Below, in pieces: positions 16,405 to 64,000 of a stretch of 64,000 nt of DNA; position 1 is the first letter of the stretch; every line of letters starts with the position of its first letter. The position numbers were made by a program, and so were the translations under genes. The stretch is from a virus. The stretch is from positions 24,793-88,792 of the IMG/VR virus record IMGVR_UViG_3300012940_000022, one strand, 5' to 3'. The notes beneath the pieces are model-generated. The model was not told where the DNA came from and ran no database searches. It was given only the letters and a program-made list of their open reading frames with translations.

Positions 16405-16751
16405 CCCATGCTCCCAATGATTGCCGCTACTGCGGTGAAGAGAAGTACTCTTCAATCGCCTTCGTGATTGCGTTCTTGGCCAATTCGTAGGTCGCCGAAG
16501 ATAAATCTGGAATCTCATCGAGAGCGCCGCTCGCACTCCAGAACGATCAATGCCGACCGCTCGTCACAGCGACCTGTCAGGCGCAAGAACGCAGCACCAC
16601 GTGCAGAGCTGTTGAGCTGCATCTCGCCACCTGGTCGTGCGACATGTTCGACGAGAGACCGAGAGCGCCGATGTTGCGGCCACTTTGATCGCCCCCGCGA
16701 CGCAGATTGATCGGAAAGGCCGGAGACTAGTACCTAGCCTGGCCGCTCCGG

Positions 16752-18086: not shown

Positions 18087-18451
18087 ATGCTCCCCCGACT
18101 GCAGCCGCAACTCTCCGGTTCACGGCGCGCGTTAACGACCACGCCCACCGCGAGCGCGGTGGCGTTGATCCCTGGCTGATGGCTATCTGCAACGCTGAGT
18201 GCAATGATCGGGGATAGTCTAGCGAGCGAAGAGAACGCTGCACAGAATGATTAGTCTGGGGATCATGGGGCGTTCAGCGAATACGACGGGGTACTTTGAT
18301 ACCGCTCGCCCGCATTCACTGCGCCAGTTGCCGGGCGAGACCGGCGACCTCTCACCTATCTGAAAGCAGAAACCCACCATTCGCGAAGTTCCCGCTGACC
18401 CTCGCAATGCTCTTCAATGATTTGACGTGCGGCGCCGGGATACTCGCGTTT

Positions 18452-19138
18452 TCAGAATGATCCCTGACGAGCGATCGGCTCGATCAGACCCGGATCGTCG
18501 TTGCCGGCATTGCCGACCCGAGGTGAGACGGGATAGGCCTCGAGCGCGTCGCTGTCAAAGGGTTTGAGCAGTGGCAGCACCGCCTCGGGCTCGGTCAACT
18601 CGCGGTCGAGCCACACCTCTTCATCCTCGGGGTGCAGAATCACCGGCATGCGGTCGTGGATGCCGGCAATCGCTTCGGCCGGTGTGGTGGTGATAATCGC
18701 GTAGGTGATCACCCATTGGTCGGCTTCGTTCCTGAACTCCTCCCAGAGCCCAGCGAAAGCGAAAACGTCTTCATCCTTGAGATGAATGTAATACGGCTGC
18801 TTCTTGCCTTTATCGCCCTGCCACTCGTAATAGCCAGATGCCGGGACAATACAGCGCCGCTTCCTGATCGAATCCTTCCACGTGTTGGTCTCGGTGACGG
18901 TTTCGGCCCTGGCATTGATCGGCGCTTTGTATTTGCCGCCCGGCTTCCACCACGGTTTCTTCAGCCCCCACTCCATGAGGCGAAGCTCGCGCTGCCCGTC
19001 CTTGTTCTCTGCGATCACCGGCAGTTGCTGGCTCGGGGCGAGGTTGTAACCCAACTGAATGTGATCGGCGATCACGCCAACCCTGAACCGTTCGATGATG
19101 CCGGCTTCAGTGCCGGCAATGACGTAGCGTCCACACAT
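18452..19138 (-). CDS. SOS response-associated peptidase (SRAP/HMCES/YedK family)
   Basis: N-terminal MCGRY, YNLAPSQ, INARAET, RCIVPASGYYEW, IHDRMPVIL. Confidence 0.96.
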   Translation of the reverse strand: MCGRYVIAGTEAGIIERFRVGVIADHIQLGYNLAPSQQLPVIAENKDGQRELRLMEWGLKKPWWKPGGKYKAPINARAETVTETNTWKDSIRKRRCIVPASGYYEWQGDKGKKQPYYIHLKDEDVFAFAGLWEEFRNEADQWVITYAIITTTPAEAIAGIHDRMPVILHPEDEEVWLDRELTEPEAVLPLLKPFDSDALEAYPVSPRVGNAGNDDPGLIEPIARQGSF

Positions 19139-19181
19139 GGCGCACTTCCCTCCGCGACAACTCGGATCGTACCTGATTTCC

Positions 19182-19250
19182 CGCCTCGGGTCACTTTTCC
19201 CCCGTCGTCTCCGCGTAATTCTCGAAAACGCCGCATGCCGTGAATAGCAT
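19182..19250 (+). promoter_or_regulatory. Late-promoter half motif and -10 before prohead protease
   Basis: GGT-CACTTTT 19189-19198; TAGCAT 19245-19250. Confidence 0.5.
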
Positions 19251-19286
19251 GCCGCCAACGGCAACCCCGTTGGAGGACCCGGCGTC

Positions 19287-20708
19287 ATGCGCGATCAGCT
19301 CAACCTGGCAACCAGTGCCCGCGTCACCGCGTTCAAAGGCGAGGACCTGCTGGCGATCGCGCGCGAGCGTGCCCCCGACCCGACGGTCTTTGACGAGCGC
19401 GGCGCCTTCTTCTGGCGCGCCGAAATCTCCAATAGCTCGCTCGACTTCTACTTCACGCGCATGTCCGAGAAGACGCTCAAGAACTTCGCCCAGGCGGCCA
19501 CGGACGGCATCTCGTTCCAGGACAGCCACAACTGGGAAAAGCTCGGTTACGGGCAGTCGCTGCGCGGCATGTTCTACAAGGCGATCGAAGACGACGAATA
19601 CGGCATTCCCTTGCATCGGGTCGAGGCCGACTTTTTCACCATTCCCGGCATCGCCATCAACGGCGTGAACACCACCGATTTCATCGACGCGGTCCGCTCC
19701 GGCGTCACCCGCGACGTATCGGTCGGCTTCTACGCCGACGAGACGCGCTGCTCCATCTGCGGGAACGAGCTCTTCCAGGGCTGGTTCGGCGGCTGGTATG
19801 GCGCGTGTGATCACGTGCCCGGCATTGAGTACGGCCTGGTCGATGAGGACGGCAAGCCGCTCATCGGCGAGGACGGCAAGAAGGTCAAGAAGCTGGCGTT
19901 CGCCTGGATCGAGGACGGTCACCTGACCGAAACGAGCCAGGTCTACGACGGCGCCACGCCGAACGCCGCCAACCTCAAAGCCGAATTGATGGCCGCCGCC
20001 GGCGCGCTCGACGACGCGAGCCGCGCCCTGATCGAGCGGCGCTACCGCCGCAGTCTCCCGAGTCCCCGCAGTCAGTTCGCCGTGCCCGGCGAGAAAGGAC
20101 AGCCCATGACCCTCGCCCAGCGCAAACCGGCAGCCAAGCGCACGGAAGAGCCGGCGAAGCCGGTGGTCGAGCCGGAAACCCCAGTCGAAGAGCCGACGAC
20201 TCCCGAACCGGCCGCGCCCGTCAGCGAACCGGAAGAGGAAGAGACCGTCATCCTCGACGACCTCGAAGAGGCGACACCCGAGCCGGAGGCCGACGCCGAG
20301 CCGGCCGACGAAGCCGCGGAGTACGAAGAGATCCGCGCCGTCTACAAGGACCGCGGCATCACCCTCGGCACCAGCCGCAACAAGGCGATCCGCATGCTCG
20401 CCGACAAGGTGATCGAGCAGCGCGATCTCGCGAAAGTCGGACGGATGTTCCGCACCGAGTTGGAGCGCGATGTCGAGGCTTCGCTCGTCCGCGCCAAGGG
20501 GGCGGATGAAACCAAGCTCGCCACCTATCGCAGCCTGTTCAAACGATCGACGGTCGAAGAACTGAAGCAGCTCCGCGCCGACTTCGAAGAGGAAGCGACG
20601 GCCCGGTTCCCGGGCCGTCGCATCACCCGCGACACCGGACCGGCGCCGGAGCACGAACAAGACCCGCAGCCACAAGCGGCTCCGGCGGGAGCCTACCGAG
20701 CGCCGTAA
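19287..20708 (+). CDS. Prohead protease/scaffold fusion
   Basis: DSH, DVSVGF (S78-like catalytic Ser), RCSICG..CDH, ETSQVY; acidic linker and helical scaffold. Confidence 0.85.
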   Translation: MRDQLNLATSARVTAFKGEDLLAIARERAPDPTVFDERGAFFWRAEISNSSLDFYFTRMSEKTLKNFAQAATDGISFQDSHNWEKLGYGQSLRGMFYKAIEDDEYGIPLHRVEADFFTIPGIAINGVNTTDFIDAVRSGVTRDVSVGFYADETRCSICGNELFQGWFGGWYGACDHVPGIEYGLVDEDGKPLIGEDGKKVKKLAFAWIEDGHLTETSQVYDGATPNAANLKAELMAAAGALDDASRALIERRYRRSLPSPRSQFAVPGEKGQPMTLAQRKPAAKRTEEPAKPVVEPETPVEEPTTPEPAAPVSEPEEEETVILDDLEEATPEPEADAEPADEAAEYEEIRAVYKDRGITLGTSRNKAIRMLADKVIEQRDLAKVGRMFRTELERDVEASLVRAKGADETKLATYRSLFKRSTVEELKQLRADFEEEATARFPGRRITRDTGPAPEHEQDPQPQAAPAGAYRAP

Positions 20709-36890: not shown

Positions 36891-37955
36891 TTATGGATTG
36901 TTCCCCGGAGCCACGACGATGCTGAAAACCTCACGGGTGACCTCGTCATAGTTGAAGATCACGATGAAGGTGCCTGGCGCCTCTCCCATCCACACATCAA
37001 AGTCGGCGTACTCAAGTCGAGGTATGAGCGACTGGCTGTTGTAGACGCGTACGGTTGAAAAGGTCTGAGGGTAGTATTCGTCAACAAGGATCGAATCGGG
37101 AGGGATCAACGCGGCAGCGAGGTCTTCAGCGGTCGAGAACGGAATATTCGGCACTTGATAAGTGAGATTCCAGACATTGCCGTTTATGTACGAAACGATG
37201 AAGCTATAGTCAGTTTGATAGCCATACACTTCAAATCCTGGGAAAGACACGTTTGGATTAGCTGAACCGTGGACTCGCTCCCAATCGGCCCGCGACTGTC
37301 CGATTCCAGATGAATAACCCGACACTCCAGATTCCGGAGCTTCCGTGGGTGTCGGCTCCGGACGTGGAGTCGGAGTCGGTTTAGGTGGAGAGGTCGGTTC
37401 CGGCGTCAATACCGCTGCTGAAATGTGAAGCGTGTGGCAAACATCCCAGAGTCCGCGCCCTTTGATGCGAGCGTCGAGTTCAGCTTTCTCGAGATTATCG
37501 AAATATTTCGGCGAGTCTTGTCCATCATCGAATCCGGCATAGCCGTCGCGAACCATTTTCGTATTGATAAGCAGCGCTTTGGCCCCGTTGGAACCTGGTA
37601 GCCAGACATAGCGAACCCGAAGCGATCCGTATTCATCGGCAGTGCCAGACTGCTCAAGATAAACGATTGTCCCGACCGGGAGTAAATCGGCGAGATATTC
37701 AGTGGATTCCTGAAAGAAGCACTCGTCGGATTCGGGAGCATCAATTCCTGCGAGCAAGACTTGCACAGCCCCATCAGGTGCTTGAACGTCGATTTTGTCG
37801 CCATCAATGATGCCGGACACTGTCGCTGGTTTCGCTGCTGCAGGTACTCCCAAGGGCAAGGCGGCGGGACTAGCACCCGGCGTCGCTTCTTGCGCGAACA
37901 CAACACTCGGCATCGCCAACAGTGCCAGTACGCTCCAAATCAACCAGCGCCGCAT
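36891..37955 (-). CDS. Secreted thermonuclease-like protein with unknown C-terminal domain
   Basis: Signal then QEATPGASPAA; DGDK, GIDAPE, MVRDGYA, GLW; PT linker. Confidence 0.88.
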   Translation of the reverse strand: MRRWLIWSVLALLAMPSVVFAQEATPGASPAALPLGVPAAAKPATVSGIIDGDKIDVQAPDGAVQVLLAGIDAPESDECFFQESTEYLADLLPVGTIVYLEQSGTADEYGSLRVRYVWLPGSNGAKALLINTKMVRDGYAGFDDGQDSPKYFDNLEKAELDARIKGRGLWDVCHTLHISAAVLTPEPTSPPKPTPTPRPEPTPTEAPESGVSGYSSGIGQSRADWERVHGSANPNVSFPGFEVYGYQTDYSFIVSYINGNVWNLTYQVPNIPFSTAEDLAAALIPPDSILVDEYYPQTFSTVRVYNSQSLIPRLEYADFDVWMGEAPGTFIVIFNYDEVTREVFSIVVAPGNNP

Positions 37956-51780: not shown

Positions 51781-52197
51781 ATGAATAGGTCTCGACCGAT
51801 TGTCCAGCTTTGGAAGTGGTTCATTGCCGCGGCTGCGATCGCCTTGGTGATCGTGCTCACGGTACAGCTTGCTGCCGCACAAGAGGTCACAACCGATACC
51901 AGCGAGATCGGCGGCATCCCGACGAACATTCTCATGTGGGGCACCGTCATCGGCTTTCTCGGCTCGCCGTTTATCTCCGCGCTGAATCGCCAGAAGTGGA
52001 GTTCTGAAGTCAAGGCGCTCTCGGCGTTTGTGTGGTGTTTCGTCGGGGCGCTCGGCACGGTGTACTTCAGCGACAATTTCGACGTGCAGAACCTCGCAAC
52101 GACGTTCCTCTTCACCTTCGTGACCGCGATCAGCAGCTACGAGAAATTCTGGAAGCCGACCGGGATCGCCGGCAAGATCGAACGGGCGACCGGCTAG
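51781..52197 (+). CDS. Holin
   Basis: Several TMs; ALNRQKWSSEVKAL...YEKFWKPTGIAGKIERAT is typical of actinophage-type holins. Confidence 0.8.
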   Translation: MNRSRPIVQLWKWFIAAAAIALVIVLTVQLAAAQEVTTDTSEIGGIPTNILMWGTVIGFLGSPFISALNRQKWSSEVKALSAFVWCFVGALGTVYFSDNFDVQNLATTFLFTFVTAISSYEKFWKPTGIAGKIERATG

Positions 52198-52329
52198 CAG
52201 CGGTCATCCATTCGTGCGATCAGCCGATTTTGGTCGAATCTGTACGCCAAAGAGCGCTGGCGATACTCCGTTGGCGCTCTTGTTATGATCCCGGAAAGCA
52301 TGAGATCTTCTTCACGTAGGAAGCAGACA

Positions 52330-52854
52330 ATGGACGCATGGGCTTTCGGACTAGCGGCTTTTTCAGTCGTCTTTTCTGGAATTTTGGGTTTCGGAAGTGC
52401 CTACTTTGTGTCGTCAAAGCAGCGCCAGTGGGAAAAGCAGGACGAGCGACGTCGAGAGCATCAAGCAATCCTTGAAGAAATCAACGACATCGTGACACGC
52501 TTGCTTGCCATTAGCCTGCGAGTTCCGTTTATTGCCTCGCGATTGAACTTGAGCATTCGCCATCTCTGCGGCTTCGATCTACCAGCAGCGTTCATTGAAG
52601 CGATATCTCTATCGCTCCGTGCGGCCAGCCTGAGCCGCAGCATCGACGACAAACCCCTCAAGGAATCAATAGAAGCATTAGCGAACACTCTGCGAAAGGG
52701 ATTGACTGAGAACGAGAGTAATAACTTCAGCGCTTGGCAAACGACTATTCAAAGCAAGTCCCGGCAGGTATTGCAACGCGTTGACGAGTTGAGCGCGAGA
52801 CCAATCGGGCCTCCGAAACGCCAACGAAGATGGCGAAGAATGGCACAAAATTAA
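52330..52854 (+). CDS. Membrane-anchored helical protein (moron)
   Basis: N-terminal TM then RQWEKQDERRRE; less GC-rich. Confidence 0.7.
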   Translation: MDAWAFGLAAFSVVFSGILGFGSAYFVSSKQRQWEKQDERRREHQAILEEINDIVTRLLAISLRVPFIASRLNLSIRHLCGFDLPAAFIEAISLSLRAASLSRSIDDKPLKESIEALANTLRKGLTENESNNFSAWQTTIQSKSRQVLQRVDELSARPIGPPKRQRRWRRMAQN

Positions 52855-52944
52855 ACAAGCGCTCACAGCATGATTCCAAATCATCATTATGCAATTCTGT
52901 GATTCAGTTGTCGTTCAAAACCTTTCTTGAGGGGATCAACTAGT

Positions 52945-53406
52945 ATGGAAGAGCCTACGCTCACACGCGCCGATCAAACATCGGGATCAGCGCCGATCGC
53001 CGCTATCCTCGAACTGCTCCGTCAGCGATGCCCGGAAGCCGAATACGTCCATGCGCTGCGCGTCGCGAGTGGCGCTCGAGACAACGCGACTCGCCTGGTC
53101 GCACTTGCTCATGACCTGGTCGAAGACGGCTATGCTACTTGGGATGAGATTGAACGCGCGCTCAATGAATACGCGGGCGAGTGCCTCCCGGCACTGAAGC
53201 TGCTCACCCGAACCGGCGAGCCGTACGAGGATTACATCGCCGCGATCGGCACCTCCGGCAATCGCATCGCGCTCACCGTCAAGGCGCTCGACCTGCTCGA
53301 TCACCTTTCGCCGGCGCTTTGGCCGACGTTGCGAGAAGACCGCATTGACCGGTATGTCGAAGCCTTGCGCATAGTTACGATCAACGGGCGAGCGCTCGCG
53401 CGATAG
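52945..53406 (+). CDS. Small HD-domain protein, RelA/SpoT (Mesh1/SAH) hydrolase-like
   Basis: YVHALRV, AHDLVED, LLTR...YEDYI...VKALDLLDHL. Confidence 0.8.
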   Translation: MEEPTLTRADQTSGSAPIAAILELLRQRCPEAEYVHALRVASGARDNATRLVALAHDLVEDGYATWDEIERALNEYAGECLPALKLLTRTGEPYEDYIAAIGTSGNRIALTVKALDLLDHLSPALWPTLREDRIDRYVEALRIVTINGRALAR

Positions 53407-53477
53407 GCCGTCTTCAGTGCGCCAAGATTGCGCCGGCCTACTCGCCGTGGCATTGTCTTCCACATAGGGAGGCTTCT

Positions 53478-53888
53478 ATGGACGACGAGACAACGATCAA
53501 GCCACAGCAATCGATTCGCCGCTTCGATGTATTCGCCGAATTTGCCCGGCAGGAGCGTATTGAAAAGGGCGACGCCCCAGACGTCGCCAAAGGTGAGGGC
53601 ATCTGGCGGGCGAAGGTTGTCGCATCTCGATCAAGATCGAAATCTGACGACGAGAAAAGCGAAAGTGGCGCGAAGCCCGACCTGCCCAAAACCAAGTTCA
53701 AGTCCCTAAGCGGGAAAGAACAGAACGACCGCGTGTTCGATGAGGAAATCATCGACCGCATGGGCGAGATGTTTTACGAGCAGGTGTTTGCTCCAGCCAT
53801 TGAGCTCGCGCGGAAAAAGGGCGAGAAATACATGGACGTACGCGATTCGATCCGAGAGGATTGGCAGTTGCCGAAATCCAGGAAATAG
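53478..53888 (+). CDS. Conserved hypothetical protein
   Basis: GGAGG RBS; IRRFDVFAE...FYEQVFAPAI. Confidence 0.8.
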   Translation: MDDETTIKPQQSIRRFDVFAEFARQERIEKGDAPDVAKGEGIWRAKVVASRSRSKSDDEKSESGAKPDLPKTKFKSLSGKEQNDRVFDEEIIDRMGEMFYEQVFAPAIELARKKGEKYMDVRDSIREDWQLPKSRK

Positions 53889-53985
53889 CGGCTCTGTCCT
53901 CGCTGAATTGCTACGATAGGATCACCGCCGATCGGTCTACGGCGGCCGCCCGCATCTGCCACCGCAGCACTGCGGGCACTTCGTT

Positions 53986-55182
53986 TCAGCTCATACGACC
54001 GGCCTTTCGCAGGTTGACTCGCCGTCCCATCACTGCGTAGTACGTGCGTCCGAGAAGTAGCGCTATTTCCACCGCCGATTGCTTTGGATGATCAATGATC
54101 CATTGGTCCTCTTCGGCCGACCAAGGCTCATTCGTGTTCCGAGCTTGGTCCTTGGTCTGCTCCTGGGATGTAGTCGTAAATTCGTGAGCTTTGTCGAGAT
54201 CATCAAGCCTCGCTTCGCGCGGCTTCTCGTGCCATTCCCGACGCATACGCTCCTTGTCAGCTTCCCGGAATTCTCTATTTCGCTCGGGATGCGACTGTCT
54301 CCACTTCGCTACATAGGATGTGCTGAGAGAACCGGGGGCGCGATCGGCACGGCGATTGCGGGCACGCTGGCGTTCTCGCTCTGGGATACAAGCGGGATGT
54401 GTCTTATGGGTGAGATTGTTGACGGCAACCGGCTGACCGCACACATCGCAGGACGTCCAGTAGAGTCGGCAAACCCACTGTCCATTTCGGAGCTTTCGCC
54501 GAGATGCAGCGACGGTGAAATACGGGGCGGCTATACGGGTCGCGAGATCAGTTGTTGGCTCGTCATCTGAGGCGTTCAGAATAGCCCGCAGTTGATCATC
54601 AGTGAGTAAGTGGACTTCTCGTTTCTTGCGCCCAGATACCGATTGAAGAGTTGGTTGCGGGTGCGCCGATTCGTCCAATGCGAGATCTTCTTGCCGGACA
54701 GATTTGCGCCGTGCACGTTGTGACAGTGGAACGTCTAGCTGTTTCCTGATTTTATTGCGTTGAGCCTCCACCGCTGTGACTGTACGCCCGAGCGATCGCG
54801 CGACATCGATCGCGGGATCAGCAAGATGCTGGATCATATATGCGCGGTCAATGGCGGACCAGCGCTTGTGCTTCGACCGGGCCTCGGCGGTGCTTTCTAT
54901 TTTTGCGCGATGCGCAGTAGCAACGTTCGCTTTGTTGGACGCAGTTCGGCAGCGAGGGTGTAATTTCTGCCGAGCGTCGCGTGCAGCAAAGAGGCCGCCA
55001 CAATAGAGACACGTTCGCCATTGCAATCGGCAGACGTACCCTTCTGCATAGCGTTTCCGATAGAAGAAAACAACGTGCCGCGGTATGCCTAATGCGGCGG
55101 CCAAGGTGTCATCCGGTGCATCAGATGGCGCCCAGACAATTTGAGCAATCACCTCATCAGAGTATTTCGGTGGTTTCGGCAT
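53986..55182 (-). CDS. Tandem (2x) HTH + Zn-finger + Myb-like protein (paralog B)
   Basis: WRTCLYCG..HPRC, WSAID..LGRTVTAV; WTSCDVCG..HPAC, WSAEED..LGRTYYAV. Confidence 0.8.
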   Translation of the reverse strand: MPKPPKYSDEVIAQIVWAPSDAPDDTLAAALGIPRHVVFFYRKRYAEGYVCRLQWRTCLYCGGLFAARDARQKLHPRCRTASNKANVATAHRAKIESTAEARSKHKRWSAIDRAYMIQHLADPAIDVARSLGRTVTAVEAQRNKIRKQLDVPLSQRARRKSVRQEDLALDESAHPQPTLQSVSGRKKREVHLLTDDQLRAILNASDDEPTTDLATRIAAPYFTVAASRRKLRNGQWVCRLYWTSCDVCGQPVAVNNLTHKTHPACIPERERQRARNRRADRAPGSLSTSYVAKWRQSHPERNREFREADKERMRREWHEKPREARLDDLDKAHEFTTTSQEQTKDQARNTNEPWSAEEDQWIIDHPKQSAVEIALLLGRTYYAVMGRRVNLRKAGRMS

Positions 55183-55579
55183 CGACACGTTCCTGTGTGA
55201 TCCACCACCGCTCAACCGTGTCGAGCAGTGCCACCGTCTCGAGAGACGTCAACGAGTGCAGACGCTGGATCAAATCGTCGGCGTCCGCGATTCCGAACCG
55301 TATGTGCGCCCCATCGAGTTTGATCGCATCTTCGATCGAGACGACAAAGAGGTGTGGCTGGTAATCCATGCCGGGTGTGCCGGCGATGGCTTCGCGCATC
55401 AGCGCCCATTCATTGGGGTCGGCAAAGAACTCGTGCACGCGTAGCCTGGCCTGATTGATCAAGACGTAGTACCGAGTAAGGTCACGCGCGGCCACTTGGC
55501 CCGGAGAATCCCCACGAGCGTGGAGTTCCGGTTCGATGGCCGTACTGCGGAATTGAATCTGTGTCGGACGGTTGCTCAT
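55157..55579 (-). CDS. Possible ribbon-helix-helix DNA-binding protein
   Basis: QIQFR beta strand then two helices (PELHARG, GQVAARDLTRYY). Confidence 0.55.
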   Translation of the reverse strand: MSNRPTQIQFRSTAIEPELHARGDSPGQVAARDLTRYYVLINQARLRVHEFFADPNEWALMREAIAGTPGMDYQPHLFVVSIEDAIKLDGAHIRFGIADADDLIQRLHSLTSLETVALLDTVERWWITQERVDAETTEIL

Positions 55580-55896
55580 TCGATATCGATCCCATACTTG
55601 TCGCTCATTTCAGCAGATAGATAGCGACGAATGACATACACGATGTCACCGCTCTCTTCGGTCATTAGTGCCTCGAAGTCCTGATCATCCTCGGCGAACA
55701 CATCAGCAATGTCGATTGTGGGGATCTCGAAATCAGGCCAGCCAATGGATTTTGCTGCTGTGTACCGATGAGCACCGGTCAGAAGCTGATCTTCGCCCCA
55801 GCGAACCAGCGGAGCTCCGTACCAGCCGCTCGCTTCCATCGCATTGGCGAGCGCTTGGACCTTTGCCAGATTCTCGGGTTCGTGCCAGGTGATCAT
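55576..55896 (-). CDS. Short ParB/Srx N-terminal domain protein
   Basis: KVQALANAMEASGWYGAPLV...LLTGAHRYTAAK. Confidence 0.75.
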   Translation of the reverse strand: MITWHEPENLAKVQALANAMEASGWYGAPLVRWGEDQLLTGAHRYTAAKSIGWPDFEIPTIDIADVFAEDDQDFEALMTEESGDIVYVIRRYLSAEMSDKYGIDIE

Positions 55897-55937
55897 TGTC
55901 GAGACCCTCACTCGGTGTTCGTTCGCCCTATGGCAAT

Positions 55938-55973
55938 CCTATTGTATACCATTGGTATACCATGGTCAATAGG
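55938..55973 (-). promoter_or_regulatory. Sigma-70 promoter with operator repeats
   Basis: TTGACC-17-TACAAT on minus; GTATACCAT twice, 11 bp apart; CCTATTG/CAATAGG flanks. Confidence 0.8.
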
Positions 55974-56040
55974 GAGGCTAGACCGTGACCTCTCGACACA
56001 TCTTGTAATCTCCCCGAGCAGCAGTATCATAGTGCTTACG

Positions 56041-56060
56041 ATTAGAACATTAGTTCTAAT
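56041..56060 (+). promoter_or_regulatory. LexA (Cheo-type) SOS box upstream of dnaE2 operon
   Basis: ATTAGAAC-ATTA-GTTCTAAT; TATCAT -10 just upstream. Confidence 0.85.
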
Positions 56061-56080
56061 GCCGCAGAAAGGGAGACATC

Positions 56081-56314
56081 ATGCCGGGCCTCACCAAACT
56101 CTTCGCCGGACCGATTGAAAAACAGGACCTCGACCGCGCCTGGGCGGACTATGAAGCGGCGCTCGCCGCTGACCCCGATCTCTGTGACGGCGAGGAAGCG
56201 GAGCGCTGGATGAGCAATCCTGCGAACGCGACCGAGCTCGAGGAACTCGCCACGAAGTTCCAAATCAATCGGGTTGCCGGCGATCCGGACGACCTCTCAG
56301 ACATCCCCTTCTGA
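56081..56314 (+). CDS. 77-aa acidic protein with SSB-like C-terminal tail
   Basis: AAAGGGAG RBS; ends GDPDDLSDIPF. Confidence 0.8.
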   Translation: MPGLTKLFAGPIEKQDLDRAWADYEAALAADPDLCDGEEAERWMSNPANATELEELATKFQINRVAGDPDDLSDIPF

Positions 56315-56388
56315 GCTAGCCGCACTCGGTCGCTGACCGGGTGAGTGATTGAAACCTCACATCTCCAGACACGACAAAGGACGCAGCG

Positions 56389-59300
56389 ATGACGAAGGGT
56401 GGGTACGTCGAGCTGCACCTTCATACCTCGTATTCCTTCCTCGATGGTGCCAGCCAGCCGGAAGAGCTTGTGCTCCGCGCCAGGGAGCTTGGCCTTCCGG
56501 CGCTAGCGATTACCGACCATGACGGGCTGTACGGCGCGCTCGAATTCGCGCGGATGTGCCAGGCAGCCGGCATCCAGCCGATCACCGGCGCCGAGATCAC
56601 GCTGATCGACGGCACGCATCTGACCCTCCTCGCGGAGACGCAGGAGGGCTATCGCAATCTCTGCCGACTGCTGACGGAGGCCCATCACACGGTGCGGGCC
56701 GGCGCCGAACCGGTCTGGGGTGATGACGAACCGCCGATCTGGCACACCCTGCCGCTTGATAACGGACGCTGGCGTCACCATTACCGGGAGCCGGAGACCG
56801 CGCCATGGCTCGACCCTGCCCTGCTTCCACGTTACGCCCGCGGGCTGATTGTGCTCACCGGCTGCCGGAACAGTCAGCTCTCTCGGCTTGTCGATGCGCA
56901 TCGCATGCGTGATGCCGCCGCCCTGCTCGAGCAGTACATCGCCTGGTTCGGCCGGGAGAACGTCTTCGTCGAGCTGCAACAGAACTGGGTGTTCGGCGAT
57001 CGTCCCCGGGTGCAACAGTTAGTGCGTCTCGCCAAAGCCGCTGGCGTCGGCTACGTCGCGACCGGCGACGTGCACTATCACCGCCGCGATCGCCATCGCC
57101 TGCAGGATGTGCTCGTGGCGATCCGCCATCGCACCACGCTCGACGGCAGCCATCGCCAGCGGCGGCCAAACGCCGAATTCCACCTTGCCTCGGCCGACGA
57201 GATGCGTCTTCGCTTCGCCGATTATCCCGAGGCCATCGATGCCACACTGGAGATCGCCCGGCGCTGCGCTTCCTTTGACCTCAATACCGACCTCGGCTAT
57301 GTCTTTCCGGATTATCCCGGCCTTGCCGAGGGCGAGACGCCGGACGACGCGCTGCGCCGGCTCTGCACCGCCGCCTTCTCTACCCGCTACCCGGCCGGAT
57401 CACCGCGTTTTCAGGAAGCGACCGAGCGGCTCGAAGAGGAATTGCGACTCATCCGGCAGCACAAGCTCGCCGGTTTCTTCCTGATCCACTACGACTTGCT
57501 GGAACTGGCGCGCGAGGTGGCGGTCGAGATTCGCGGCGCCGCTACCTATCGCGCCAGGGCCTTGCTGCCGCCGGGACGCGGCCGTGGCTCGTCCGTCTCG
57601 TCAATCGTCTGCTACCTGATCGGACTCTCACCGGTCGATCCGCTCGAGCACGGGCTCAAGATCGGGCGCTTTCTCAATGACGGCAGCTCCTCGGTGCCGG
57701 ACATCGATCTCGACTTCCCGCGCGACATCCGCGAGCGACTGCTTGAACGGATTCATGCCGACTATGGCAACCGGGCGGCAATGGTCTGCGCCTTCGCGAC
57801 CTACAAGCTCAAGTCGGCGGTGCGCGATATCGGCAAGGCGCTCGGGATTCCGATCAGCGATCTTGACCACATCGCCAAGGGGGCCGAGCCGCATTCGGCG
57901 ACCGAGCTCGGACGGGAGCTAGAGCGCATCCCGACGTACGCGCAGCGCAAGACCGAGCCGCCCTGGTGCTACCTCGTAGAACTGGCGGAGCAGCTCGCCG
58001 GCCATCCCCGGCACATCACCCAGCATTCCGGCGGCATGATCGTCTCGTCCGGGCCGATCACCGGTATCGTGCCGGTGCAGCCGGCGGCGATGGAAGGGCG
58101 CTTCCTCTGCCAGTGGGATAAGGACTCCTGCGACGATGCCCGCTTCGTCAAGATCGACTTTCTCGCGCTCGGCATGCTCTCCGCCGTCGAAGAATGCATG
58201 GATCTGATCGGCCGCTCCGGAGCGCCCGTGCCCGATCTCAGCCGCATCGATTACGCGGACGAGGCGATCTTCGAGATGATCCGCGCCGGTGACACGCTCG
58301 GCACCTTCCAGATCGAGAGCCGCGCGCAGATCCAGACGACGCTGCGCACGGCACCGGCAACGCTGGCGGACATCGTGGTCCAGGTCGCGATCGTGCGCCC
58401 CGGTCCGGTGGTCGGCGGTGCGACCACGCCGTACATCCAGCGCCGGCGCGATCCCGACTGGCAACCGACCTACGACCATCCGCTCTTGGAGCCGGTCCTC
58501 CGCGATACGCTCGGCGTCGTCGTCTTTCAGGATCAGGTCTTGGAGGTGGCCCAGGCCTTAGCCGGGTTTACCGCGGGTCAGGCTGACTCACTCCGGCGGG
58601 CGATGACCCGCAAGCGCTCGAACGAAGCAATCGAGGCGCATCGCCAGGATTTTTACCGGGGAGCAGACGCGAAGGGGGTCGATCGCCAGACAGCGGAGCT
58701 CGTCTTCGAGAAATTGCGCGGCTTTGCCCAGTACGGCTTTCCGCGCGGACACGCGGCCTCGTTCGGGGTGCTTGCGTACCAATCCTGTTACCTCAAGCGC
58801 TATTACCCGGCGGAGTTTCTCTGCGCGCTGCTCAACAATCAGCCGATGGGTTTTTACCCGACCCACGTGCTCGCGCATGAGGCGCAGCGCCGCAGCATCG
58901 TGCTCCTGCAACCGTCGATCAACACGAGCGAGGTGCGCTCGAGTGTGCCGGGCAAGGGCATGGTCCGGATCGGGCTGGGGCAGGTCAAAGGCCTGAGCGA
59001 CGAGCAGGCGGAGCAGATCGTGCGTGAGCGCGAGGCGCATGGCCGCTACCAATCGCTGGGCGATTTCGTTCACCGCGTGGTGTTGCCGCGTGAGCTCACC
59101 CAACGCATGATCCAGGTCGGCGCGTTTGACGAGTTCGGGCTGTCTCGCCGGGAGTGTGCGTGGCAGCTCGGGCTCTATATCGAGCCGCGTCGCTTCGGCA
59201 CCGAAAAAGGCACGACGAACCGACGGCGCAAGAAGGACCGGATTGCCGGCATGCAACAGCCCCTGCCGTTGCCGGTCGAGCAGGATATGGTGCACCTGCC

Positions 59301-59766
59301 GCCGACAACCGCTTCGGAGCGCATGCACGCGGACTACGAGGTGCTTGGTCTCTCGGTGCGCTATCACCCAATCAGCTTGCTCCGTCACCGGCTCCCTGAT
59401 CATCTCGTTACAGCGCGGACATTGCTCGATCTCCCCGACGGCGCCCGCATCCAGATCGGCGGCATGGTGGTGGTCCGGCAACGGCCCGAAACCGCCAAAG
59501 GCGTCACCTTCCTTTTATTGGAAGATGAAACGGGCCTGAGCAACGCGATCATCTACCCTGCTCTTTACCAGGCTGAGCGATCACTGGTGCGCGGCGAGCC
59601 GATGCTGATGATTACCGGCCGGGTGCAGCGGCAGGCGGATACCATCAACGTCGTGGCGGAGCGGATCGAGCCATTGGCAAGCCATCTGAAACCTGATCCG
59701 TCCGGCAATCGCCTTTCGCTCAAGCCGGTCGAGGAGGTTTCACCAAAGGCGCACAGCTACCGATGA
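56389..59766 (+). CDS. dnaE2: Error-prone DNA polymerase III alpha (DnaE2/ImuC)
   Basis: YVELHLHTSYSFLDGAS, GRGS, PDIDLD, QWDKD, VRQRPETAKG, C-terminal HSYR. Confidence 0.95.
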   Translation: MTKGGYVELHLHTSYSFLDGASQPEELVLRARELGLPALAITDHDGLYGALEFARMCQAAGIQPITGAEITLIDGTHLTLLAETQEGYRNLCRLLTEAHHTVRAGAEPVWGDDEPPIWHTLPLDNGRWRHHYREPETAPWLDPALLPRYARGLIVLTGCRNSQLSRLVDAHRMRDAAALLEQYIAWFGRENVFVELQQNWVFGDRPRVQQLVRLAKAAGVGYVATGDVHYHRRDRHRLQDVLVAIRHRTTLDGSHRQRRPNAEFHLASADEMRLRFADYPEAIDATLEIARRCASFDLNTDLGYVFPDYPGLAEGETPDDALRRLCTAAFSTRYPAGSPRFQEATERLEEELRLIRQHKLAGFFLIHYDLLELAREVAVEIRGAATYRARALLPPGRGRGSSVSSIVCYLIGLSPVDPLEHGLKIGRFLNDGSSSVPDIDLDFPRDIRERLLERIHADYGNRAAMVCAFATYKLKSAVRDIGKALGIPISDLDHIAKGAEPHSATELGRELERIPTYAQRKTEPPWCYLVELAEQLAGHPRHITQHSGGMIVSSGPITGIVPVQPAAMEGRFLCQWDKDSCDDARFVKIDFLALGMLSAVEECMDLIGRSGAPVPDLSRIDYADEAIFEMIRAGDTLGTFQIESRAQIQTTLRTAPATLADIVVQVAIVRPGPVVGGATTPYIQRRRDPDWQPTYDHPLLEPVLRDTLGVVVFQDQVLEVAQALAGFTAGQADSLRRAMTRKRSNEAIEAHRQDFYRGADAKGVDRQTAELVFEKLRGFAQYGFPRGHAASFGVLAYQSCYLKRYYPAEFLCALLNNQPMGFYPTHVLAHEAQRRSIVLLQPSINTSEVRSSVPGKGMVRIGLGQVKGLSDEQAEQIVREREAHGRYQSLGDFVHRVVLPRELTQRMIQVGAFDEFGLSRRECAWQLGLYIEPRRFGTEKGTTNRRRKKDRIAGMQQPLPLPVEQDMVHLPPTTASERMHADYEVLGLSVRYHPISLLRHRLPDHLVTARTLLDLPDGARIQIGGMVVVRQRPETAKGVTFLLLEDETGLSNAIIYPALYQAERSLVRGEPMLMITGRVQRQADTINVVAERIEPLASHLKPDPSGNRLSLKPVEEVSPKAHSYR

Positions 59767-59910
59767 TGGCAGCATTCACCGGCGAACGTTCTGCGGCCAA
59801 TCACCAACTATCCACTGAGTTATCAACATAACGGGATAACTTCGGCGGAACGCGAACGAAGTACACTGTGAGCGTTCCACCGGTCCTACCCGGTGAGGAT
59901 TCCACGGCGA

Positions 59911-60144
59911 CTAGTCTTCGGACTGGTCGCCGCTTCCATTTTCCGCCGACATCAATTCAATCGGCTTCACGTCAAGGGCATTGGCAAGGCGTCGAATCGT
60001 GCTCAGCCGCACCGACTTACCTCGCTCCGCGTCGCTGATCGTCGCCTGACGAACGCCCGCGCGCTCAGCCAGATCCGCCTGCGACAACGCCTGTACCTGA
60101 CGGTGATACTTCAACTTCTCCGGATCCAAATGCATTTCGCTCAT
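59911..60144 (-). CDS. XRE-family HTH regulator
   Basis: LSQADLAERAGVRQATISDAERG...LANALDV. Confidence 0.9.
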   Translation of the reverse strand: MSEMHLDPEKLKYHRQVQALSQADLAERAGVRQATISDAERGKSVRLSTIRRLANALDVKPIELMSAENGSGDQSED

Positions 60145-60148
60145 ATCA

Positions 60149-60211
60149 ATACGTATCGTAGTCCACTTCGCACCGATTGACAAACGTATTATAAACGTAT
60201 AATATACGTAT
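60149..60211. promoter_or_regulatory. Back-to-back promoters with phased ACGTAT operators
   Basis: + TTGACA(60177)-17-TAATAT; minus TTGTCA-17-TACGAT; ACGTAT at 60151, 60184, 60195, 60206. Confidence 0.8.
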
Positions 60212-60287
60212 GTGAGAAATGGAATCCTCACCAGGGATCAGCGCCTAAGGGAGTAGGAACCCGGCGGCACGCAGGACGGAGAACACG

Positions 60288-60896
60288 ATGCAGACCGCGA
60301 CCTACCACAATCCATTTCGCCAGCAGCTGATCGAAATGGGCAAGGCGATCGAAGAAGCTAAGCGGGATCATGCCCAGGCCGAGCTTGGCGTCTTCGCGAT
60401 CGCCCGTGGAGAGCGCATGACGGCGGATGCGAAAGACGCGGCGTACCGAACGCTGAAGCTCTGCCAGGATCGACTCCGCGCCGCCATCGGGCAGTACGAC
60501 GAGACATTCGAGCAATTCCTCGAGTGGGTCACCCCGATCGTAGTCGATGAAGAGGCCGCGATCGCTGACGCCGGCGCCGATGCGGTCGCGACCGCTGAAA
60601 AGATCATCGCTGCGGCTCGCATGGTCAGCGAACGCAATGCCATCGCCGATCGCGCCGTGACGGTCTGGATGTACGACAAAAACCCCGATCTGCCCCACTG
60701 CTGGAACGGCGAGCGCATGACCGCTGCGACCGCCGCTCGGGCTATCGCCGAGCGGAGCGCCGCCGGGAAACCACGCGTGACTCGGACGTGGGAGGGATAC
60801 ACGTCATTCGCCTTCGCCGGCGGTAGCCGGGTTGTCGTCAAGGGCGCCACTGCCGACGAACTCCGCGATGCCTACCTGGCCGCGGTTGCCGCTTAG
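60288..60896 (+). CDS. Early hypothetical protein
   Basis: GGAG RBS; first gene downstream of switch promoter. Confidence 0.75.
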   Translation: MQTATYHNPFRQQLIEMGKAIEEAKRDHAQAELGVFAIARGERMTADAKDAAYRTLKLCQDRLRAAIGQYDETFEQFLEWVTPIVVDEEAAIADAGADAVATAEKIIAAARMVSERNAIADRAVTVWMYDKNPDLPHCWNGERMTAATAARAIAERSAAGKPRVTRTWEGYTSFAFAGGSRVVVKGATADELRDAYLAAVAA

Positions 60897-60924
60897 TCCG
60901 ACTTTCCCCGAAAGGAGTACCGCT

Positions 60925-62214
60925 ATGGATTGCATTGCCCAGACATCGATCGCGCGCGTCAGCATCAGCTCCCGCAATCGCGATCGCCAAACTGAACTCG
61001 TGATTGCGGACTATCCCGCCCTCATGGAGCGCGCCCAGCGTCTCTGCGTCTACGTCGCGCTGCCGGTGGCCTTGGAGGCGCCGGCGGCGGAAATGGCATT
61101 CGCCAGCTATCACGTTCACTGCAGCGACGGGCTGAGCGTGGTCGGCTACGACGCCGATGCGCAGCTCTCGGGCGACGATCTCGAGACCTGGCTCGCGGCC
61201 ATTGCTGACGATGTGCGCGCACTGGTGGGAGACGATACTCCCACCGATCCTGATCCAGAGAACGGCATGTCGTACATCGAGGTCGACATGAGTCCCGATA
61301 CGCCGATCGAGGACGTCCTTGCCTACATCCGGGAGCATGCGATTGGTGGCGGTAGTCAGCAGTTTGATGTGGGCATGCAGCGCGGGCCGGCGCTTATCGA
61401 AGTGCGACGATCCGCGGAGGCCAGTCTCCTCTATCGCCGATGGCTGCAAAGTCTCGATCCCCGATACCCCGAACAATGGGGCTCCGAAATGCTCGAACAG
61501 GCCTATGAGTTGCGCCAGGCCATCATCGATCATGCGGCGGCGAATCCACTTGACTGGTCGCGTGACTGGATCGAACGCAACATCATCCATGAACGCGATG
61601 CGCTGGCGGCGCTGATTGCTCTCCCCGTCACCGGCGGTTCCCAGAACGCCAGCGGGGCGGCGAGGGAACGGCGCATCAGCGCGGCGCAGGCCATGGTCGC
61701 GCAGGCAGAACATCGCGTGGCGGCCGTTGAGCGCAACTCCTCGCTCAAGACCAACCACTTTCGCGACTGGTCCGCAGCGCTCAATGATGCGTCGCAAGCC
61801 CGCAATTCCGCTCGATTCCTCAAGAGTGCCTGCACGCTCACCGATAGCCCGTTAGCGTGTGGTTTCGCCGAGGAGCACCAACTCGTCGAAGCCGTGCAGG
61901 AGCTCGAAGCGGTTTGCGTCGAGCTCCCATTGCCAATCTCGGAATACCTTCTCGAACTCGGCGTGCTTCAAGCGCTCCCGCGAAGTCGTCGTCACAAGCG
62001 CTTCCGCGTCACCTGGACCTACGCCGGCGAGTCGCACGATATCGGGTTTGTCACCATCTCCGAAGCACGGGCATATGCGCGCAATATCACCGCCTGCTGG
62101 GTCACGGATTACGCGAGCATCCAGGACCAGCCACGCGGTATAACGCCGATGCTCGTTGATACCTACCATGCTGGACGGCCACTCACTCGCAGCGAAACGG
62201 CAGCATGGTCATGA
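60925..62214 (+). CDS. Composite early hypothetical protein
   Basis: AAGGAG RBS, ATG 60925. Confidence 0.7.
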   Translation: MDCIAQTSIARVSISSRNRDRQTELVIADYPALMERAQRLCVYVALPVALEAPAAEMAFASYHVHCSDGLSVVGYDADAQLSGDDLETWLAAIADDVRALVGDDTPTDPDPENGMSYIEVDMSPDTPIEDVLAYIREHAIGGGSQQFDVGMQRGPALIEVRRSAEASLLYRRWLQSLDPRYPEQWGSEMLEQAYELRQAIIDHAAANPLDWSRDWIERNIIHERDALAALIALPVTGGSQNASGAARERRISAAQAMVAQAEHRVAAVERNSSLKTNHFRDWSAALNDASQARNSARFLKSACTLTDSPLACGFAEEHQLVEAVQELEAVCVELPLPISEYLLELGVLQALPRSRRHKRFRVTWTYAGESHDIGFVTISEARAYARNITACWVTDYASIQDQPRGITPMLVDTYHAGRPLTRSETAAWS

Positions 62215-62483
62215 ACCCTTCAGACACTCCCGACTCGATCCTCGCCCGTTTCGCTACAGAATTTAGGAACCCGGCTGGTCAAGAACTGAGAATCACGTTT
62301 GCGGACGGAGCGACTCGAGACGGATCAGTCAGAGGTGGTCCGAATAACTTCGTCATTGTTCATGGCAAACACGCTGAATCAACTACATATCTCCATACCT
62401 GGGACATCACCCGCATCGACTACAGCAACGCCCGCTACCGGGGTGCCGAGCCGCTCTATGAACGGAAGTCCGCCAATGTTTGA
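62211..62483 (+). CDS. Hypothetical protein (Sm-like beta pattern)
   Basis: ATGA overlap; LRITFADGATRDGSV. Confidence 0.6.
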   Translation: MNPSDTPDSILARFATEFRNPAGQELRITFADGATRDGSVRGGPNNFVIVHGKHAESTTYLHTWDITRIDYSNARYRGAEPLYERKSANV

Positions 62484-62757
62484 CCTCTGGACCATGCGAG
62501 ACGGCCGCACCATCCGCGTTGACGATATGACTCATGATCACCTGCGCAACACGATCGCGATGCTCCGGCGCCGACTCGCTGAAATGGATGCGAGTGACAC
62601 ATTAGGGTTTCCGCCGAACGCGCCGTCGTGGGTGATCGATGACTACTTCGCCGGCAAAGACACCATCGAAGGATGGATCGCGCGTCTAGAGGCTGCCCTT
62701 TCTCCCGATCCTGTTTGGGTCAGCCGTGACGACGAGCCGGGCAGAGGCGAGCCATGA
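62476..62757 (+). CDS. Phage hypothetical protein
   Basis: WTMRDGRTIRVDDMTHDHLRNTIAML, a recurrent phage motif. Confidence 0.75.
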   Translation: MFDLWTMRDGRTIRVDDMTHDHLRNTIAMLRRRLAEMDASDTLGFPPNAPSWVIDDYFAGKDTIEGWIARLEAALSPDPVWVSRDDEPGRGEP

Positions 62758-62929
62758 TCACCCGATAGATCATCTTCCGTGATGGCCGCCGAATCTACGC
62801 AACGACTTCGAAACCGCGCTTCGATGTGCAGCTCGCCGACGAACTCGCGCGTGGAGGGGCGATCGATTGGACGACGGAGCTCGTGCCGAGACTACGGCCC
62901 ACTATCTGATATCGCGCTAAACTCATGGT

Positions 62930-63001
62930 CGCGGGATGGAGCAGCGGCAGCTCGTTGGGCTCATAACCCAAAGGTCGATGGTTCGAATCCATCTCCCGCC
63001 A
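62930..63001 (+). tRNA. tRNA-fMet (CAT)
   Basis: Cloverleaf; CAT 62962-62964; three G-C pairs in anticodon stem; C1:C72 mismatch; TTCGAATCC; CCA not encoded. Confidence 0.92.
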
Positions 63002-63078
63002 CCCTCGAAGATAGCCCGCCCAATTGAATTGAACTGGCACTCACTTCAACAGTGTTCCAGCTGTTGAAGCCGAGTTCA

Positions 63079-63510
63079 CTATGCCGCCGTCACCACCTCG
63101 ACGCGCCGCTCCATCTTTGCCCGGCATTCGGCATGCATCAGCTGCCGGCCACTCCGCGTGCAAAACTGCTCTCCGCATTCGAGACAAACCGGGAAGTAGA
63201 CCGGGCACGAATTACGCGGCACGCGGCGTTTCCAGTCGCAGAGATCACAGGCAACCCGGGCGACATGCCGGGACACGAAGCGCGCACCGCAATCCGAGCA
63301 GGTGCGCCAATGCAGCTTTGTTGACGCGAGACCTTGCACTTTTGCACGGTACCGCTGGACGGTGAAGAAATCCGCGCCGATCCGGCCGGCCAGCTCCGCG
63401 GACGATTCATCGGCGCCAGCGTGTACGATCGCGGCTCGCTGCGCGTCGGTCAATGTGCCCATTCGCGGCAATTCACCCGTCTCGAGATACGTCGCCAATT
63501 GTGCCTGCAT
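63079..63510 (-). CDS. HTH + double Zn-finger protein (paralog C)
   Basis: GAGGAG RBS; LTDAQRAAIV..LAGRIGADFFTV; WRTCSDCG; CLECG..HAEC. Confidence 0.78.
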   Translation of the reverse strand: MQAQLATYLETGELPRMGTLTDAQRAAIVHAGADESSAELAGRIGADFFTVQRYRAKVQGLASTKLHWRTCSDCGARFVSRHVARVACDLCDWKRRVPRNSCPVYFPVCLECGEQFCTRSGRQLMHAECRAKMERRVEVVTAA

Positions 63511-63543
63511 CGTACGCTCCTCGTGCGTTCTCACCTCGATCAC

Positions 63544-63572
63544 AGAATAGAACAAGAGTTCTGAATTGTGAA
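63544..63572 (-). promoter_or_regulatory. Promoter with LexA box in spacer
   Basis: TTCACA-17-TATTCT on minus; AGAAC-AAGA-GTTCT 63549-63562. Confidence 0.75.
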
Positions 63573-63632
63573 GAGGATGAGACGCATAGGAGCGCACGAC
63601 GCGGCAATGAACGCGGGCACGAGTTGGACACG

Positions 63633-63655
63633 CGATAGGATACGATAGGATACGA
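63633..63655. repeat. 10-bp tandem repeat (CGATAGGATA x2.3)
   Basis: Seen directly in intergenic region. Confidence 0.7.
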
Positions 63656-63808
63656 GCGGCTACGCTTTTATCAGGATGAATGCGCGCAGATACGCTCCGC
63701 TACGCTCTCATAGGTCGCCTCTGATAAACTCTCGTTAATCACTCCTAGCCGCTTTCCCCGCCGCGCCGGAATACCCGCCCGGGAACCGCTGGGGAGGAAC
63801 GAAACATC

Positions 63809-64000
63809 ATGAAGAACCGATTGTATTACCGCAAAGAAAAACTTCGTGGCGCCTGCTGGGAATATGAGATTGACGGCGGTTGGCTGACGCTGCCCTCCGG
63901 ACGATCCGACCGCCAGGTGCTGCATCACACCTTTACGTTCTACCGGCCGCGCAGTGTCGAAGTACGCACCGAAGCGGGCGTACAAACGCTGGAGCGCACC
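63809..64000 (+). CDS. Hypothetical protein (partial, runs off window)
   Basis: GGAGG RBS; MKNRLYYRKEKLRG... open to end. Confidence 0.65.
   Translation, partial: MKNRLYYRKEKLRGACWEYEIDGGWLTLPSGRSDRQVLHHTFTFYRPRSVEVRTEAGVQTLERT

Follow-up and report, generated by a model that had tools for sequence, protein, structure and literature searches.

The 64,000-nt stretch of viral DNA analyzed here (the window; bases 24793-88792 of the 88,792-bp IMG/VR virus record IMGVR_UViG_3300012940_000022, which is classed as linear and 79% complete) carries an uninterrupted gene for an error-prone DNA polymerase of the DnaE2 class, dnaE2, and directly upstream of it a gene for a small acidic orphan protein, ORF77, whose extreme C-terminus resembles the tip of SSB, the bacterial protein that binds single-stranded DNA. 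The carrier of the two genes is a prophage, with an integrase gene, capsid and tape-measure genes and a terminal direct repeat. It is tentatively proposed that ORF77 and dnaE2 form an accessory operon of two genes, repressed by LexA and located toward the right end of this prophage, which would provide the error-prone polymerase together with a small protein docking into the pockets that take the SSB tip. From the relatives of the polymerase we infer a host from the Thermomicrobiales/Chloroflexia, referred to below as the host clade. The unit is composed of the following elements.

56003..56030 (+): promoter-like site, TTGTAA-16-TATCAT, 9 of 12 consensus matches, recognized by consensus match alone
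56041..56060: LexA-type operator, a perfect 20-nt palindrome of 8-4-8 form, ATTAGAAC ATTA GTTCTAAT, with the core GAAC-ATTA-GTTC
56081..56314 (+): ORF77, an orphan acidic protein of 77 aa ending in DDLSDIPF
56290..56311 (+): codons of the last seven residues of ORF77, DLSDIPF, an SSB-tip-like end
56389..59766 (+): dnaE2, an uninterrupted DnaE2-class C-family polymerase gene (1125 aa)
59254..59271 (+): QQPLPL, DnaE2 residues 956-961, at the position of a clamp-binding-type hexapeptide in the relatives
59905..59942 (+): terminator-like hairpin after dnaE2, with a 12-bp stem and a T-rich tail

Predicted LexA control of the ORF77-dnaE2 unit

The palindrome begins 11 nt past the -10-like hexamer of the promoter-like site, one of five such sites in the segment 55800-60300 (mean of 1.0 in shuffled sequences). 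Its core pattern, GAAC-N4-GTTC, occurs three times in the 88,792-bp record, as against once for a reversed-pattern control, and the extended form AGAAC-N4-GTTCT occurs twice, in the 56041-56060 region and at 63549-63562. The site GAACGCGGGTTC at G000 20891 has neither flanking A/T nor an AT-rich spacer and was not counted as an operator. The GAAC-N4-GTTC core is found upstream of lexA, as CGAACAnnTGTTCG, in all four host-clade genomes searched, and 19 of 75 loci of the relatives have it no more than 2.5 kb upstream of dnaE2 (for example, AGAACATATGTTCT in L010, L012 and L057); the boxes of the relatives stand ahead of operons of the order iPolY-imuB-C-dnaE2. Because the core precedes both lexA and the dnaE2 operons of relatives in the host clade, we accept that the ORF77-dnaE2 unit is very likely under LexA control, and the SOS box that an earlier note had recognized in this DNA is borne out as a perfect palindrome with a LexA core. 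Promoter, operator, ORF77, dnaE2 and terminator thus make up what appears to be a tidy bicistronic unit.

ORF77 as a gene and as a protein

Several features make ORF77 a well-supported, real-looking orphan gene. The ATG is preceded at a distance of 5 nt by GGGAG, with an in-frame stop 7 codons upstream; the codon-usage log-odds score (0.54 bit/codon) is the best of the six frames, compared with 0.32 for dnaE2 and 0.07-0.30 for five neighbors; and the GC content by codon position (0.69/0.44/0.74) resembles that of true genes of the phage. The product contains 18 Asp/Glu residues versus 6 Lys/Arg. The earlier note had described it as an acidic protein of 77 aa that ends in DDLSDIPF and has no OB fold, and this description is upheld: the open reading frame (ORF) was confirmed, ORF77 has no Pfam match to an SSB or OB fold, and PF00436 is absent from the whole record. 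A single-sequence AlphaFold2 model contains helices at residues 14-30, 37-44 and 47-59, so that about 59 residues are structured, and leaves residues 60-77 unstructured. The claim that the protein is helical therefore stands as far as three predicted helices go, but the model is of low confidence (pLDDT 61). With no PF00436 match and a helical, if low-confidence, model, ORF77 is taken not to be an SSB.

No family match was found for ORF77 in Pfam, NCBIfam or PHROG, and an Atlas feature search gave no usable match, the structure rows all lying below the naming bar. A word-index search of 5.8 billion clusters returned ORF77 itself alone, and a full HMMER search over 1.84 billion representatives returned 82 matches, none of which was judged genuine besides ORF77 itself; almost all of the rest belong to long repeat proteins in which residues ~12-37 find several matches, and they were taken as TPR-like noise, and TPR_11 matches about the same residues weakly (E 0.14). 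The viral-contig DNA scan gave nothing usable, and the sole match in the metagenome scan, which lies inside a membrane-permease-like ORF, was dismissed as chance. Other identities were considered and set aside. The N-terminus has a short resemblance to the IEKQ of RecA-NT-like motifs, with no match to Pfam DUF4113 or any other family at E<=10; the tail does not fit the clamp-binding patterns QLxLF and QLxLxL; and a relationship to ImuB-C, the small protein usually encoded near dnaE2 in the relatives, is contradicted by an hhalign probability of 0.15% against the ImuB-C profile, and a six-frame profile search of 55901-56420, aimed at an ImuB-C that had diverged or suffered a frameshift, yielded only negative bit scores (best E 0.52).

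The SSB-tip-like end of ORF77

The C-terminal end of ORF77, DPDDLSDIPF, is located on the segment that is unstructured in the model and shows the sequence signature of an SSB-Ct-type end, an aliphatic residue followed by Pro-Phe after acidic residues. Host-clade SSBs end in DFDDVPF (two genomes) or MDDVPF (one). Between DLSDIPF of ORF77 and DFDDVPF of the host, Asp at -7, Asp at -4 and the terminal Pro-Phe are identical and the hydrophobic character of -6 and -3 is conserved, so that the two share the pattern D-hydrophobic-x-D-[IV]-P-F.

Such ends are rare in a control set of six-frame ORFs with a minimum length of 50 aa, drawn from ~1.0 Mb (all loci plus the phage): [ILVMP]PF terminates 8 of 6348 ORFs, comprising five SSBs, one non-acidic 53-aa ORF and two ORFs from the phage. 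The pattern [DE][VLI]xF terminates 5 of 5798 control ORFs, three of them SSBs, and 4 of the ~104 phage gene models (crude models of our own, scanned with Pfam, PHROG and NCBIfam), all four beside DNA-metabolism genes; in the phage it also matches two frames that are clearly spurious, including one antisense to ORF77. Between 0.04 and 0.36 such ends would be expected among ~104 genes, against the four observed (Poisson ~1e-7 to 5e-4), a statistic that is post hoc and indicative only. Apart from ORF77, the phage proteins with such ends are the following.

L006:6991-7545 (+): 184-aa orphan directly after RecT, with the charged tail …SAGEVEF
L006:12460-12801 (+), on G000:C1 and outside the window: 113-aa protein between the DnaN and DnaQ-like exonuclease genes, ending …DEDDEVAF
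L006:14888-15364 (+): 158-aa orphan before the SNF2-type helicase, ending …GDELPF

The 113-aa protein matches phrog_29525 and has 129 homologues, mostly unnamed. Of the 120 listed homologues, 45 terminate in Phe, 92 carry four or more acidic residues within the last 12, and the tips include DPDDIPF, DEDVPF, DDGIPF and DDEPPF. Since acidic, SSB-tip-like tails are kept across the homologues of the 113-aa protein, tails of this kind on phage proteins outside PF00436 are evolutionarily maintained in at least one family of this phage. A model of the protein built from an alignment of 59 homologues (pLDDT 86) shows a small five-stranded beta-barrel, helices and a floppy acidic tail; the barrel has a weak likeness to Sm/Hfq-like barrels (Foldseek E 0.06 or worse), and the protein may serve as an adaptor of the SSB hub or bind ssDNA as a phage protein of a kind not yet recognized. 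For the 158-aa protein, the structure rows of the Atlas suggest a fold like that of Mu Gam / Sipho_Gp157 / DUF7173. The similar ends on three other phage proteins, together with a 129-member family with conserved tails, make it unlikely that the tail of ORF77 arose by chance and suggest that it is probably a docking motif.

In one host-clade locus the SSB gene (L093:1489-2088) reads through to a non-SSB end, with a …DDGEPPF tip in another frame (1823-1996); the break is either an assembly frameshift or a real frameshift.

DnaE2 and its origin

The intact dnaE2 reported in the earlier note was confirmed. Its 1125-aa product is unbroken and matches NF004225 ("error-prone DNA polymerase") end to end with 947 bits, which exceeds the cut-off of 939 by a narrow margin, whereas the score against the DnaE1 model NF004226 (748 bits) is below the cut-off of 1002. 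The Pfam architecture comprises PHP, polymerase core, fingers, HhH and OB regions, and the motifs PDIDLDF and KIDFLALG, in which we take the catalytic acidic residues of the polymerase to lie, are retained and align with the invariant columns D438, D440 and D590.

The closest DnaE2 relatives are encoded by metagenome-assembled genomes (MAGs) of Thermomicrobiales, Sphaerobacteraceae and Chloroflexia, and the phage enzyme is 53-62% identical to Chloroflexia/Thermomicrobiales DnaE2s. Among 50,697 GenBank phage records, the closest match stays below 35% identity, and only four related loci were detected in 2.9 million viral contigs, at 33-37% identity. A quick maximum-likelihood tree (40 rows, without a DnaE1 outgroup; L008, L020 and L057 were dropped for stops or a frame slip) places the phage DnaE2 inside a nine-row Thermomicrobiales/Chloroflexia clade with SH-aLRT 100, on a long terminal branch (0.54). 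These relationships indicate that the polymerase was captured from a host-type gene of the DnaE2X system, without its inactive-PolY and ImuB-C neighbors.

QLxLxL is a clamp-binding motif. In the alignment columns of DnaE2 residues 956-961, where the relatives have QLSLPL, QLSLAL or QLPIPL, the phage enzyme has QQPLPL, and it is possible that this hexapeptide is co-adapted to the phage's own sliding clamp DnaN (TIGR00663, 226 bits), which is encoded in the record along with a DEDD (DnaQ-like) exonuclease.

The usual partners of DnaE2

According to the papers of Timinskas and Venclovas (PMC12926913, NAR 2026; PMC6511836, NAR 2019), the DnaE2X system, which is computationally defined, consists of an inactive PolY (iPolY), a stand-alone ImuB-C, DnaE2 and RecA, with no ImuA; the former paper also has many DnaE2s occurring without imuA/imuB. 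In the relatives of the phage gene, dnaE2 is typically preceded by a gene for a ~400-aa IMS (Y-family) protein and then one for a ~95-aa protein with a WRIDDEWWR motif, the latter being ImuB-C, which is found within 1 kb upstream of dnaE2 in 45 of 75 loci. The relatives thus belong to the ImuA-less DnaE2X type, and the premise of the earlier note that DnaE2 normally needs ImuA/ImuB is dated in the light of PMC12926913.

That imuA and imuB are missing, which the earlier note had stated for the window, holds for the whole 88.8-kb record (79% complete): at E<=1 its six frames contain no match to the Y-family/ImuB domain (PF00817), a profile of 21 ImuB-C proteins finds no match at E<=1, and the RecA/ImuA family (PF00154) has no match in it. 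The host clade, where the earlier note had advised looking for mutasome genes, does possess one: all five genomes tested have a single ImuB-C gene each, the relatives being without ImuA. In three of these five genomes (the Chloroflexia/Thermomicrobiales MAGs G003, G004 and G005, with the dnaE2 loci L014, L016 and L011), dnaE2 stands alone and the single ImuB-C gene is on another contig; dnaE2 in L014 and L016 adjoins a divergent acetyltransferase-like gene. This arrangement resembles the mycobacterial split cassette, and with its occurrence in three of five genomes, separation of ImuB-C from dnaE2 is normal in the clade. The host may thus supply iPolY/ImuB-C partners to the phage DnaE2 in trans, and host RecA would be available to it. 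The idea that ORF77 and DnaE2 act in place of ImuA/ImuB is therefore correct in that neither gene is in the record, but it loses ground in that the partners may come from the host.

Proposed role of the unit and rival explanations

In the mechanism that we tentatively favor, DNA damage would cause LexA cleavage and thereby switch on the ORF77-dnaE2 operon. DnaE2 would make error-prone, lesion-tolerant synthesis available to the lysogen or the induced phage, probably using its own altered clamp motif QQPLPL plus iPolY, ImuB-C and RecA of the host in trans. The tail of ORF77 would enter pockets of host or phage proteins that normally take the SSB tip, and the protein would either compete there, shifting the balance between the SSB clients present at damaged forks, or serve as a local adaptor; direct contact between ORF77 and DnaE2 is no more than a possibility. 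ORF77 would then be one of four tip-bearing small proteins beside DNA-metabolism genes of the phage.

A number of points weigh against this proposal. Its key functional claim rests on the resemblance of seven residues, in a protein that has no relatives, and the ORF77 tip departs from the host tip at two positions (Ser for Asp, Leu for Phe). The pattern [DE][VLI]xF was defined after the tails had been seen, and the locus was drawn from ~250,000 windows, among which a few chance DIPF ends are to be expected somewhere. ORF77 has no homologues in the searches described above, hence no evolutionary sign that the tail or the protein is maintained, and both of its models are of low confidence (AlphaFold2 pLDDT 61; Atlas pLDDT 0.49). 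The host is deduced from the relatives of one gene alone, and, with the record 79% complete, its missing portion could contain an imuB or ssb gene of the phage.

The main rival, and a serious one even if on the unlikely side, is that the prophage has its SOS switch in ORF77, or that ORF77 is some other regulator or DNA mimic induced by damage, with dnaE2 as a passenger and the SSB-like end incidental. Coliphage 186 Tum and the Gifsy prophages provide the precedent of LexA-controlled antirepressors, which would inactivate a non-cleavable repressor. Consistent with such a role, ORF77 is small, very acidic and the first gene behind the LexA box; the self-cleaving repressor domain Peptidase_S24 (PF00717) has no match at E<=1 in the record; and XRE-type HTH proteins are present in it, one of them encoded directly after dnaE2 at 59911-60231 (-). 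ORF77 is, however, unlike any antirepressor family in Pfam, PHROGs or NCBIfam, and a gene near the att-like repeat (described below) encodes an HTH/zinc-ribbon protein behind a second LexA-type box and is at least an equal candidate for the switch; an incidental tail also fits poorly with the enrichment of such tails in the phage. It is far less plausible that ORF77 is non-functional, either a frame open by chance or a leader in the dnaE2 transcript's 5' region. The frame is short, lacks a homologue and yields two low-confidence models, as a non-functional one might, but it has a strong GGGAG ribosome-binding site at a 5-nt spacing, a codon-usage score above that of dnaE2 and a gene-like GC distribution by codon position, and much of the phage is orphan sequence anyway. 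Of the readings considered here, this is the one to which we give the least credence.

The strong form of the earlier note's proposal gives ORF77 a much larger part: it would replace the ImuB-type hub, its helical portion binding DnaE2 and its tail tying the polymerase to SSB clients, and the two genes would form a self-sufficient mutasome. ORF77 does occupy, in an operon with dnaE2, the slot directly upstream that ImuB-C holds in 45 of 75 loci of the relatives; the clamp-type motif of DnaE2 is altered (QQPLPL versus QLSLPL/QLSLAL), and its long branch is as expected after a change of partner. Nevertheless ORF77 is unrelated to ImuB-C by the hhalign and six-frame searches, and its model is helical, while ImuB-C is a beta-barrel according to PMC12926913. 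Moreover, a tail mimic would lead to SSB clients and not to SSB-coated DNA, and host ImuB-C is probably available. We consider this form improbable. An extension of it appears just as doubtful to us, namely that the SSB tip is a general "address label" used by the phage on four unrelated small proteins, with ORF77 as the damage-induced member that replaces the ImuB-type hub, holds DnaE2 and plugs it into the host SSB-client network at stalled forks, which would amount to a minimal two-protein mutasome of new design. Very unlikely, in turn, is the explanation that DnaE2 is mainly the phage's own replicative or repair polymerase, working with the phage clamp and the DnaQ-like exonuclease, and that ORF77 is a small accessory subunit of the replisome. 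The record does encode DnaN, a DEDD exonuclease, a DnaC/IstB-like loader and an initiator, dnaE2 is the only DNA polymerase gene among its scanned ORFs, and the three further tip-bearing proteins are in the replication module. On the other side, dnaE2 is ~65 kb from that module, in a stretch of accessory genes and preceded by a LexA box; its product is classed with, and nested among, error-prone DnaE2s; and DnaE2s are not known to work with DnaQ (PMC12926913).

Relation to known systems

The C-terminal hexapeptide of Escherichia coli SSB is DDDIPF, as given in the abstract of PMC5872125. The tail of ORF77 is like SSB-Ct in its position at the extreme C-terminus, its aliphatic-Pro-Phe end, the acidic residues before it and the disordered stretch that it follows; it differs in having no OB-fold domain and in the Ser and Leu that stand where the host tip has Asp and Phe, and the resemblance is known at the level of sequence. 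The unit shares with the DnaE2X module the polymerase lineage, the type of LexA box and a small gene directly upstream of dnaE2. However, it is prophage-borne, its upstream small gene is unrelated to that for ImuB-C, and iPolY and ImuB-C are absent from the record; with no Y-family, ImuB-C or ImuA/RecA gene found, the record does not contain a complete module of either the ImuA-ImuB-DnaE2 or the DnaE2X kind. With the canonical ImuA-ImuB-DnaE2 mutasome of Mycobacterium and Caulobacter, as described in PMC6511836 and PMC12926913, it has the SOS-type DnaE2 in common but not ImuA or ImuB, and the relatives of its DnaE2 use no ImuA. The Bacillus subtilis prophage Y-family polymerases UvrX and YozK-YobH are predicted to be LexA-controlled (PMC6511836), and they are comparable as LexA-controlled error-prone polymerases on mobile elements, although the enzyme here is a C-family DnaE2 and not a Y-family polymerase.

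Two further parallels concern ORF77 and the other tip-bearing proteins. Like the Tum/Gifsy antirepressors, ORF77 is a small protein behind a LexA box in a prophage without a self-cleaving repressor domain; unlike them, it is predicted to be co-transcribed with a polymerase, and it has no sequence similarity to them. In phage T7, gp2.5 and gp4 have acidic, Phe-terminated tails that dock on T7 DNA polymerase. The present phage likewise encodes several proteins with an acidic tail ending in Phe, which are unrelated to gp2.5 and gp4 and whose tail likeness comes from sequence comparison.

Mobile elements with an error-prone polymerase under LexA control are thus already known; what is new is that a prophage carries DnaE2 without the rest of its module and pairs it with an orphan protein bearing an SSB tip. 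In the literature at abstract level, subscription journals lying outside the coverage, no description was found of a phage protein that is not an SSB but has an SSB tip and is encoded next to DnaE2. Mobile, SOS-inducible error-prone polymerases speed the adaptation of hosts and of the elements themselves, and prophage-borne DnaE2 is rare, as the four distant loci among 2.9 million viral contigs attest. If ORF77 works through its SSB-type tail, it would represent a new and very compact wiring of a polymerase, or a disturbance of host repair, through the SSB hub, and four tip-bearing proteins would make the phage a good system for studying viral exploitation of that hub. Should the tail be incidental, the locus would amount to a captured SOS gene of the ordinary kind, accompanied by an orphan leader gene.

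Other features of the prophage

According to the Pfam, PHROG and NCBIfam scans, the gene content of the record is that of a temperate siphovirus-like genome. A tyrosine integrase gene is at the left end, and the record further encodes RecT, a replication initiator, the DnaC/IstB-like loader, an SNF2-type helicase and methylases, as well as a capsid protein, a 1655-aa tape-measure protein and a glucosaminidase-type lysin. The right arm, in which the ORF77-dnaE2 unit is located, consists mostly of orphan genes. A search of window positions 52000-64000 for repeats gave nothing relevant, and none of the RNA sequencing runs listed contains the sequence; the single run that contains it in full may be the sample from which it came. 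The remaining features of interest are listed below.

G000:C1:109-123 (beside the integrase gene) and window 63723-63737: two copies of a 15-nt direct repeat, GATAAACTCTCGTTA, candidate att core
window 62929-63004: tRNA-Met gene
window 15541-16536, 17076-18110 and 36891-37955 (all -): three separate SNase-domain proteins
window 18452-19288 (-): SRAP (SOS-response-associated peptidase) gene
63549..63562: second AGAAC-N4-GTTCT box, ~40 nt upstream of where the gene at 63079-63513 (-) probably starts

The copies of the 15-nt repeat are 109 nt from the left end of the record and 264 nt from its right end. If the repeat is the att core, the ORF77-dnaE2 unit and the tRNA-Met gene would both lie inside the prophage. 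The core-pattern scan of the record detected no LexA-type box in front of the SRAP gene. The gene at 63079-63513 (-), behind the second box and near the att-like repeat, is a candidate SOS-controlled switch of the prophage; its product is HTH/zinc-ribbon-like, with a likely start at Met29 of the listed ORF. By eye, this product resembles parts of the 409-aa product of 53986-55215 (-).

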